This document shows positions 19,840 to 20,193 of a stretch of 64,000 bases of DNA, in pieces. The notes beneath the pieces were generated by a model. That model saw only the letters and a list, made by a program, of their open reading frames with translations. It was not told the DNA's origin and did not search any database. The stretch is from Octopus vulgaris (lineage: Eukaryota). The stretch's first letter is position 1; each line of letters begins with the position of its first letter. The stretch is from NCBI GenBank assembly GCA_951406725.2, contig OX597823.1, forward strand, positions 115,258,001 through 115,322,000, written 5' to 3'. The position numbers and the translations under genes are program-made.

Positions 19840-19993
19840 CTGTATTACTATCATAAAGAATTCTAGATGTAATTATCTTCCCACACAGCGAAAACAACTG
19901 CTCCAAATCTTGCTGGGTCATTGACTTTGGTAACCCACATATATACAAGTTAGCTCCCTTAATACTTTCACTACTGGGTCTTGCATATGACAC
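19840..19993 (-). CDS. elav: ELAV-like RRM2 N-half, alternative exon B of a mutually exclusive pair
   Basis: tttttag|GTG...ACA G|gttaga; 154 nt, open frame [51 protein letters not shown](G). Confidence 0.9.
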
Positions 19994-20039
19994 CTAAAAA
20001 TAATTAGTGAAGGTGGTTAATAAAAACCCCAGTCAGTAC

Positions 20040-20193
20040 CTGTGTTATTGTCATAAAGAATTCTGGATGTTATAATGAATCCACACTGAGAAAACAATTT
20101 CTCCAAGTCCAACTGAGTGAAAGACTTTGGCAAGCCACTTATGTACAAGTTTGCCCCTTTAATACTTTCACTGCTTGGTCGGGCATATGAAAC
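20040..20193 (-). CDS. elav: ELAV-like RRM2 N-half, alternative exon A of a mutually exclusive pair
   Basis: tttcag|GTT...ACA G|gtactg; 154 nt, open frame [51 protein letters not shown](G). Confidence 0.92.

Follow-up and report, generated by a model that had tools for sequence, protein, structure and literature searches.

Twin RRM2 exons spliced as alternatives in an octopus ELAV/Hu gene, with counterparts in other molluscs and in bryozoan-like and annelid-like loci

Introduction

In the Octopus vulgaris DNA analysed here (64,000 nucleotides in all, hereafter the window), two homologous exons of equal length lie side by side in a gene for an RNA-binding protein. This arrangement raises the questions of whether each message carries one exon or the other, how the choice is enforced, how old the pair is, and what the swap changes in the protein. 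Studies of octopus and annelids routinely use ELAV to mark neurons, and ELAV has also been tied to memory in Aplysia and bees; the exon pair is absent from the literature examined. The splicing of ELAV genes is described in print as sparing the RRMs, whereas the twin exons swap half of an RRM and appear to have been kept in three phyla. Statements on papers cited by PMC number or DOI refer to the accessible parts of those papers.

Identity of the Gene

The gene that holds the twin exons is a member of the ELAV/Hu family. The ELAV/HuD model TIGR01661 scored 490.7 with the A form and 493.8 with the B form (cut-off 279.1), and the score of the sex-lethal model lay below its own cut-off. The best PDB matches were HuD, HuC and HuR for RRM1-2 and HuR/ELAV for RRM3, and the layout of tandem RRM1-2, hinge and RRM3 is the plan of the family. 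The features of the locus are listed in Table 1; the first exon of RRM1 is located some 20 kb beyond the end of the window.

Table 1. Features of the twin-exon ELAV/Hu locus, in window positions.
Feature	Position	Strand	Description
66-nt cassette exon	23735..23800	minus	adds 22 aa in the same RRM1 loop as the 51-nt exon; five reads of run X22 join it to 20626
51-nt exon	26608..26658	minus	lengthens the RRM1 loop ahead of RNP1 by 17 aa; in run X1 a loose end connects it to 20626
Upstream constitutive exon	20523..20626	minus	second half of RRM1, with RNP1
Exon A	20193-20040	minus	154 nt; end of RRM1, RRM1-RRM2 linker, RRM2 beta1-helix1-beta2; Ser19, Leu28
A/B spacer	19994..20039	minus	46 nt, GT..AG, single AG; branch-like adenines at nt 23 and 36
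Exon B	19993-19840	minus	154 nt; homologous alternative to A; Cys19, Gln28, Lys39
Downstream constitutive exon	17020..17251	minus	second half of RRM2 with RNP1, start of hinge
Last coding exon	16545..16866	minus	end of hinge, RRM3, stop codon
Possible pairing (lead)	20101..20365	minus	12-nt perfect complement between upstream intron (20354-20365) and exon A (20101-20112, codons 28-31)

The first-pass annotation of this DNA had supposed that a single ELAV gene performs the swap. This has to be amended, since the genome holds two further ELAV-like genes, both intronless, on another contig and 47-49% identical to the twin-exon gene. One neural and two non-neural elav candidates have been described in O. 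vulgaris (PMC8384421). From the presence of three ELAV-like genes in the genome, we infer that the twin-exon gene is the neural elav of that paper.

Sequence and Geometry of the Twin Exons

Exons A and B start 200 nt apart, are bounded by AG and GT, enter in phase 0 and leave in phase 1, and have open frames. Every figure given for this geometry in the first-pass annotation, the 46-nt spacer included, was recomputed and is correct. A recount likewise returned the reported 44 identical residues out of 51, the same seven A-to-B changes (S19C, F25M, L28Q, K32Q, Q36L, F39K and N49S in exon numbering) and 21 codons with synonymous differences beside the 7 with non-synonymous ones; at the DNA level, 120 of the 154 nt are identical. 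Since synonymous sites are near saturation (pS 0.75, against pN 0.083), dN/dS is given without a figure. The contrast between the two values indicates that the copies are old and constrained, as had been proposed, and the A/B pairs in other taxa and the A/B branch of the tree (see below) agree with this. In a search of positions 15000-25000, the A/B repeat was the sole two-copy family above 50 nt among the best 20 of 26 direct-repeat families by size; the other families listed were mostly short A/T-rich matches.

Inclusion of either exon alone keeps the frame from exon 20626-20523 into exon 17251-17020. Inclusion of both leads to a stop about 360 nt before the last junction, skipping of both to a stop about 120 nt before it, and retention of the spacer to a stop about 410 nt before it, so that the earlier prediction of a stop in all three cases agrees with the translations. 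Messages with a frameshifted early stop are probably removed by NMD.

Splicing of the Twin Exons

Four RNA runs were aligned to positions 16300-21000, and joints were tabulated if they had at least three reads or a contig. All four either-or joints, the junctions by which the annotation had proposed to check its claim, were present at the predicted coordinates, with 29 raw junction reads from three runs plus contigs. The upstream exon was joined to A (20523>20193) in 12 raw reads (8, 2 and 2 in the three runs) and a contig, and to B (20523>19993) in 7 reads (2, 5 and 0, thus from two runs). The joint from A to the downstream exon (20040>17251) had 4 reads (2, 2 and 0) and a contig, and that from B (19840>17251) had 6 reads (4, 2 and 0) and a contig; the run that yielded contigs showed three of the four joints. 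Neither an A-to-B joint nor a double skip was among the joints listed, although at 29 reads a share of about 10% would still be possible. At this low depth, the joints bear out the claim that A and B are spliced as alternatives. The ratio of A to B joints was 10:6 in one run and 4:7 in another, both of unspecified tissue; the two ratios do not differ significantly (p = 0.25), and these counts show no regulation of the choice.

The species named for the two informative runs is not that of the top DNA match. The reads differed from the window at one site, 16776, where all 12 covering reads had C>T on the transcript strand. RNA editing was considered and rejected for this site, as C>T is not an A-to-I change; we read it as an allele or species difference. 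In run X1, a 2.6-kb contig (17224-19868) spans the intron between B and the downstream exon at a depth of 28, compared with 56-180 in the exons, and is read as unspliced RNA or DNA.

The isoforms are also found in databases. Both A and B forms are modelled in the records of three Octopus species, with exon sequences identical to those of the window. O. bimaculoides isoforms X1/X2 and X4/X5 (RefSeq/GenBank "ELAV-like protein") encode these A and B proteins, and two equal-length isoforms of that species differ solely at the seven exon positions. The possibility that the second copy is an assembly artefact or a decaying pseudo-exon, already dismissed in the first-pass annotation, is negligible: both exons are spliced in the RNA reads, their synonymous sites are near saturation, and both isoforms recur unchanged in the three species' records. 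We found no evidence in favour of an artefact or pseudo-exon.

How Exclusivity Is Kept

Alpha-tropomyosin exons 2/3 are an exclusive pair that is enforced sterically, and the annotation had proposed steric exclusion for the octopus pair as well. The octopus geometry fits this proposal. The whole spacer is 46 nt and the candidate branch adenines lie 23 and 36 nt from the donor of exon A, below the threshold of about 50 nt for donor-to-branch distance (PMC7969005), a vertebrate-derived value that may not be that of octopus. A third branch-like adenine lies at nt 7, and the sole AG of the spacer is the acceptor of exon B. The spacer is probably too short to be spliced and would thereby act as a steric lock, which is plausible, although introns of 56-62 nt occur in arthropod-like loci. 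OGDH exons 4a/4b share a donor-to-branch distance below about 50 nt with the octopus pair (PMC7969005), but there the branch points are distant, mapped and conserved, whereas in octopus the whole intron is 46 nt and the branch adenines are candidates.

As a general mechanism, the steric lock was rejected and is kept for octopus alone, since spacers elsewhere are about 236-426 nt long. Those of the three other genomic pairs measure 426, 262 and 276 nt and contain many internal AGs, and a read-through open reading frame from oyster implies a spacer of about 236 nt. What is common to all pairs is an exon length of 3n+1. With spacers that range from 46 to more than 400 nt, the pair makes it possible to ask how exclusion mechanisms are replaced while the exons persist.

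Two sequences touch on the same subject. The oyster-like genomic open reading frame (P0024) is open from A through a 78-codon spacer into B, so that retention there reaches no stop before the end of B. In a Mya gene model (protein P0003), A and B are joined in one product by an 8-residue linker; this frame-restoring join is probably an artefact of annotation.

Exclusion by docking or selector pairing was also considered. The 12-nt intron/exon A complement of Table 1 appears in the centroid structure (whole-region z of 0.56) and could loop out the acceptor of A. Its length was reached in 1 of 100 shuffles for that pair of segments, which is not significant over the 40 pairs compared; the pairing mechanism was set aside and the complement is kept as a lead. 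For the same pair of segments, one bryozoan-like locus (L015) had a 10-nt complement (6 of 100 shuffles), and two other loci (L005 and L026) had none of at least 9 nt. The two bryozoan-like loci have a branch-like motif 35-40 nt from the acceptor and showed no conserved intronic block beyond the splice-site flanks.

Distribution across Taxa

Judged by sequence, the pair is not octopus-specific but is found in molluscs, in a bryozoan and in an annelid-like locus. A/B isoform pairs were present in 18 mollusc genera from four classes (chitons, gastropods, bivalves and cephalopods). When 16 named genera were tested, 14 had equal-length isoforms identical outside the exon, and Crassostrea gave a 15th pair with identical flanks; Bradybaena, whose two proteins differ outside the exon, was left out of trees and counts except where stated. 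All three further genera (Dreissena, Mytilus and Littorina) had the A/B pair. Doryteuthis, Aplysia, Nucula and others showed one type each, from single models, which is not proof of absence. Exon A of squid is identical to that of octopus.

Among 80 metagenome loci, six had tandem copies, all with A before B and with AG/GT ends, and these represent three distinct genes. In a quick tree of the constitutive exons, whose deep branches are unreliable, L015 and L026 clustered with Bugula, a bryozoan (96, starred), and L005 with Paralvinella, an annelid (97, starred, on 34 columns only); the placement of L012, the first piece of which was read in the wrong frame, was disregarded. Bugula itself has A and B gene models with 134 identical N-terminal residues. 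At 16 loci, both flanking exons were bounded by introns: four of these were two-copy and 12 were single-copy. The latter are arthropod-like or annelid-like by sequence, which implies that the pair is absent or lost there. The pair appears limited to lophotrochozoans. The first-pass annotation, which saw a single locus, had set the age and spread of the pair too low.

One Origin or Several

In a tree of 18 pairs, one branch separated all A from all B sequences (support 86/80) and appeared in 88% of bootstrap trees. After the addition of 25 single-exon and outgroup rows, the A sequences formed a clade (92/78, in 95% of bootstrap trees) nested among B-like spiralian sequences, although the bootstrap of this larger tree was not fully settled. 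A therefore looks like the derived copy and B resembles the single exon of the outgroups. In four-way comparisons of identity (n = 171, with Bradybaena in), pairing by exon class was best in 126 cases, by species in 29 and crossed in 2, with 14 ties. The 29 cases of species pairing indicate that local conversion or convergence occurs, and the B-like residue 49 of octopus A hints at such a conversion.

A single early duplication in lophotrochozoans is, on these sequence comparisons, quite probable. The competing view holds that molluscs, annelids and bryozoans each duplicated the exon on their own, with convergence of the A copies, and of the B copies, on similar residues. There is a precedent in mrp-1 (discussed in PMC7434440) for the independent origin of same-length exclusive exons in these phyla, Leu28 has arisen by homoplasy in halictid bees, and the branch between A and B is unstarred and rests on 51 columns. 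AU tests rejected a clade of molluscs only (p = 0.009) and one of bryozoans only (p = 0.006), but two lineage-specific duplications survived them, one restricted to octopus (p = 0.245) and one to L005 (p = 0.232). Against independent origins stand these two rejections, the recovery of a single branch between A and B in 88% (18 pairs) and 95% (with outgroups) of the bootstrap trees, and the same order of A upstream of B in octopus, the oyster open reading frame, the Mya model, L005, L015 and L026. We consider repeated origins decidedly unlikely.

Some single-copy genes show similar residues. The annelid-like ones comprise two paralog types, with either Cys19/Gln28 or Ser19/Leu28 (L009, L011, L012 and L021 versus L047 and L063) and identical 3' halves, which could mean that, once the pair had been lost, conversion or chimerism occurred. 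A division of A and B between these paralogs is not supported, since L047 (Ser19/Leu28) and L009 (Cys19/Gln28) group together (98/91) outside the A clade. Flatworm proteins (P0322, P0345, P0022 and P0337, from trematodes and cestodes) come in a Ser19 and a Cys19 type; they differ in length, and all lack Leu28 and lie outside the A clade.

Effect of the Swap on the Protein

The alignment of the exon with HuR residues 93-143 is gap-free (numbering checked against the residue names in PMC13635762), and 16 of the residues listed near RNA in that paper fall within it. None of the seven octopus differences lies on these contact positions (Fisher p = 0.083, not significant), and across the 18 pairs differences fell on 8 of 288 cells at contact positions and on 183 of 630 at the remaining positions. 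Since all ELAVs conserve the contact residues, any constraint would be expected to spare them. Mapped in this way onto HuR, A and B would share the RNA-reading face and differ on the outer surface of RRM2. The earlier description of the exons as two alternative RNA-binding domains is therefore not borne out. Its statement that the swap replaces half of RRM2 stands; the RRM1-RRM2 linker, which it had included, is identical in A and B of octopus (exon positions 1-18).

The differences recur at particular positions. Position 28 was Leu in all 18 A copies and in none of the B copies, where it was Gln, Pro, His or Arg, and A and B differed at position 49 in all 18 pairs. Position 19, in RNP2 and two residues from the stacking Tyr, was Ser in 18 of 18 A and Cys in 14 of 18 B, and position 39 was Lys or Arg in 15 of 18 B. 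There are counter-examples to these class residues: Nucula combines Cys19 with Leu28, and single-exon ELAVs of halictid bees have Leu28, which can accordingly arise in parallel. By alignment, position 28 corresponds to HuR Lys120, a SUMO site on helix 1 opposite the RNA-binding surface; in simulations, its SUMOylation changes the orientation of RRM1 relative to RRM2 (PMC11025316). Lys is absent from this position in both octopus forms, and the comparison thus covers the surface and not the SUMO site itself.

Our preferred explanation, to which we assign a probability of roughly 0.6, is that the exon was duplicated in tandem once and early, that the copies are spliced either-or, and that the swap preserves the RNA face while tuning the outer surface of RRM2. 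The duplication would have occurred in the neural ELAV/Hu gene early in lophotrochozoan history, and each mRNA would carry copy A or copy B. The 3n+1 length would provide a first layer of exclusivity in every lineage, with both-in and both-out messages frameshifted to an early stop and presumably degraded by NMD; in octopus, the 46-nt spacer would add a second layer by blocking A-to-B splicing. At the position of HuR Lys120 in RRM2 helix 1, the swap would exchange Leu (A) for a polar residue or Pro (B), and after the RNP2 tyrosine Ser (A) for, mostly, Cys (B); the helix1-beta2 loop would become basic in most B copies, and the beta2-beta3 loop would differ as well. As to function, the swap would most likely act as a switch that affects partner binding, modification, assembly into multimers or the orientation of the domains; any change in affinity would be modest at most, and the target motif would stay the same.

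The annotation had instead proposed that the swap alters RNA specificity, and a change in specificity or affinity could be brought about by the Ser/Cys exchange in RNP2 together with the basic residue that precedes beta2. Position 19 does lie in RNP2 near the stacking Tyr, Lys or Arg39 is found in 15 of 18 B copies, and residues outside the RNP motifs may alter the interaction with RNA, functional specificity being carried by RRM1 and RRM2 (Samson 2008, PMC2529313). The octopus changes avoid all 16 contact positions and leave the linker unchanged, however, and the substitution K120R left nucleic-acid binding of HuR RRM1-2 unaffected (PMC11025316), so that we regard altered RNA recognition as unlikely. 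It is more doubtful still that the two proteins are nearly equivalent and the pair is a dosage or autoregulation device, in which ELAV bound to U-rich flanks would drive splicing to unproductive, decayed forms; we hold this to be very improbable. Both failure modes do give early stops, the flanks are U-rich (58% upstream of A and 52% downstream of B), and some annelid-like genes are single-copy. Yet the adjoining introns are similarly U-rich (43-51%), no unproductive joint was among those listed, and class-specific residues kept across three phyla would not be expected if the proteins were equivalent.

A bolder extension of the preferred explanation is possible, although we put it forward tentatively. 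The pair may be a binary, pan-neuronal ELAV switch that predates the split of molluscs, annelids and bryozoans, in which the invariant Leu of the derived A form, on the back helix of RRM2 and at the HuR SUMO position, would create a surface for partners or multimers. The A/B ratio would then shift with neuronal maturation or activity and do the job that vertebrates divide between HuR and the HuB/C/D genes. In octopus, the pair would provide a clean two-state experiment, with seven residues exchanged, on the role of the non-RNA face of RRM2.

Comparison with Known Systems

The first-pass annotation knew of no description of such a pair for ELAV, and none was found in the literature searched, which lacked most subscription papers, although RefSeq models both isoforms. 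The octopus and mollusc isoform models in RefSeq/GenBank contain the same A and B proteins, but are automatic and silent on exclusivity, cross-phylum homology and function. The literature searched likewise contained no account of the conservation across molluscs, bryozoans and annelids or of the position away from the RNA face; the kind of event and the database isoforms were known. In the accessible text of PMC12570136 and PMC2546398, there was nothing on the exon pair. ApELAV1 and ApELAV2 of Aplysia are two family members with their own molecular weights (preprint 10.1101/2020.08.14.251389) and are thus unlikely to be an equal-length A/B pair.

Tandem duplicated exon substitution (PMC9741552) likewise swaps equal-length homologous exons, often ancient, inside a domain. 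That survey is human-centred, and ELAV, RRM and "RNA binding" occur 0 times in its accessible main text, whereas the octopus event lies in a splicing regulator itself. Exons 6a/6e of coq-2 (PMC7434440) are similarly an exclusive homologous pair that is found in annelids and molluscs, and in helminths too, and is absent in mammals. They switch the active site of an enzyme, with the function shown, whereas the ELAV pair would spare the functional face and its function is predicted from sequence.

Within the family, conserved junctions and mini-exons have been described (PMC2529313). Honey bee elavl2 (PMC8553928) is likewise a neural ELAV that is diversified by splicing rather than by paralogs, and its variable exons sit at the same RRM2-loop junction. 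The bee variants arise from microexons and shifted splice sites and, according to that paper, affect unstructured linkers alone and not the RNA recognition domains, whereas octopus replaces half of a folded RRM with a duplicate. The phrase "mutually exclusive" occurs 0 times in the accessible text of PMC8553928 and PMC2529313.

Other Features of the Gene and Genome

The RRM1 loop before RNP1 varies as well, receiving 17 or 39 extra residues from exons 26658-26608 and 23800-23735; the 66-nt cassette exon is present in some octopus isoforms and missing from others. In squid, the 17-aa unit of this loop occurs twice in tandem in diverged form, representing a second exon duplication in the same gene, and no separate copy of the second squid unit was found in the window. 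The inserts of other molluscs at this junction, 7-23 aa long, are unrelated. The two intronless ELAV-like genes (L003 and L004, at G000:C21:16937639-16944924) lie about 5 kb apart on opposite strands and are likely retrocopies or non-neural paralogs. Between positions 30000 and 60000, the large upstream intron of the twin-exon gene contains long tracts rich in (TA)n and (CA)n with a strong strand skew, which is ordinary for this type of genome.
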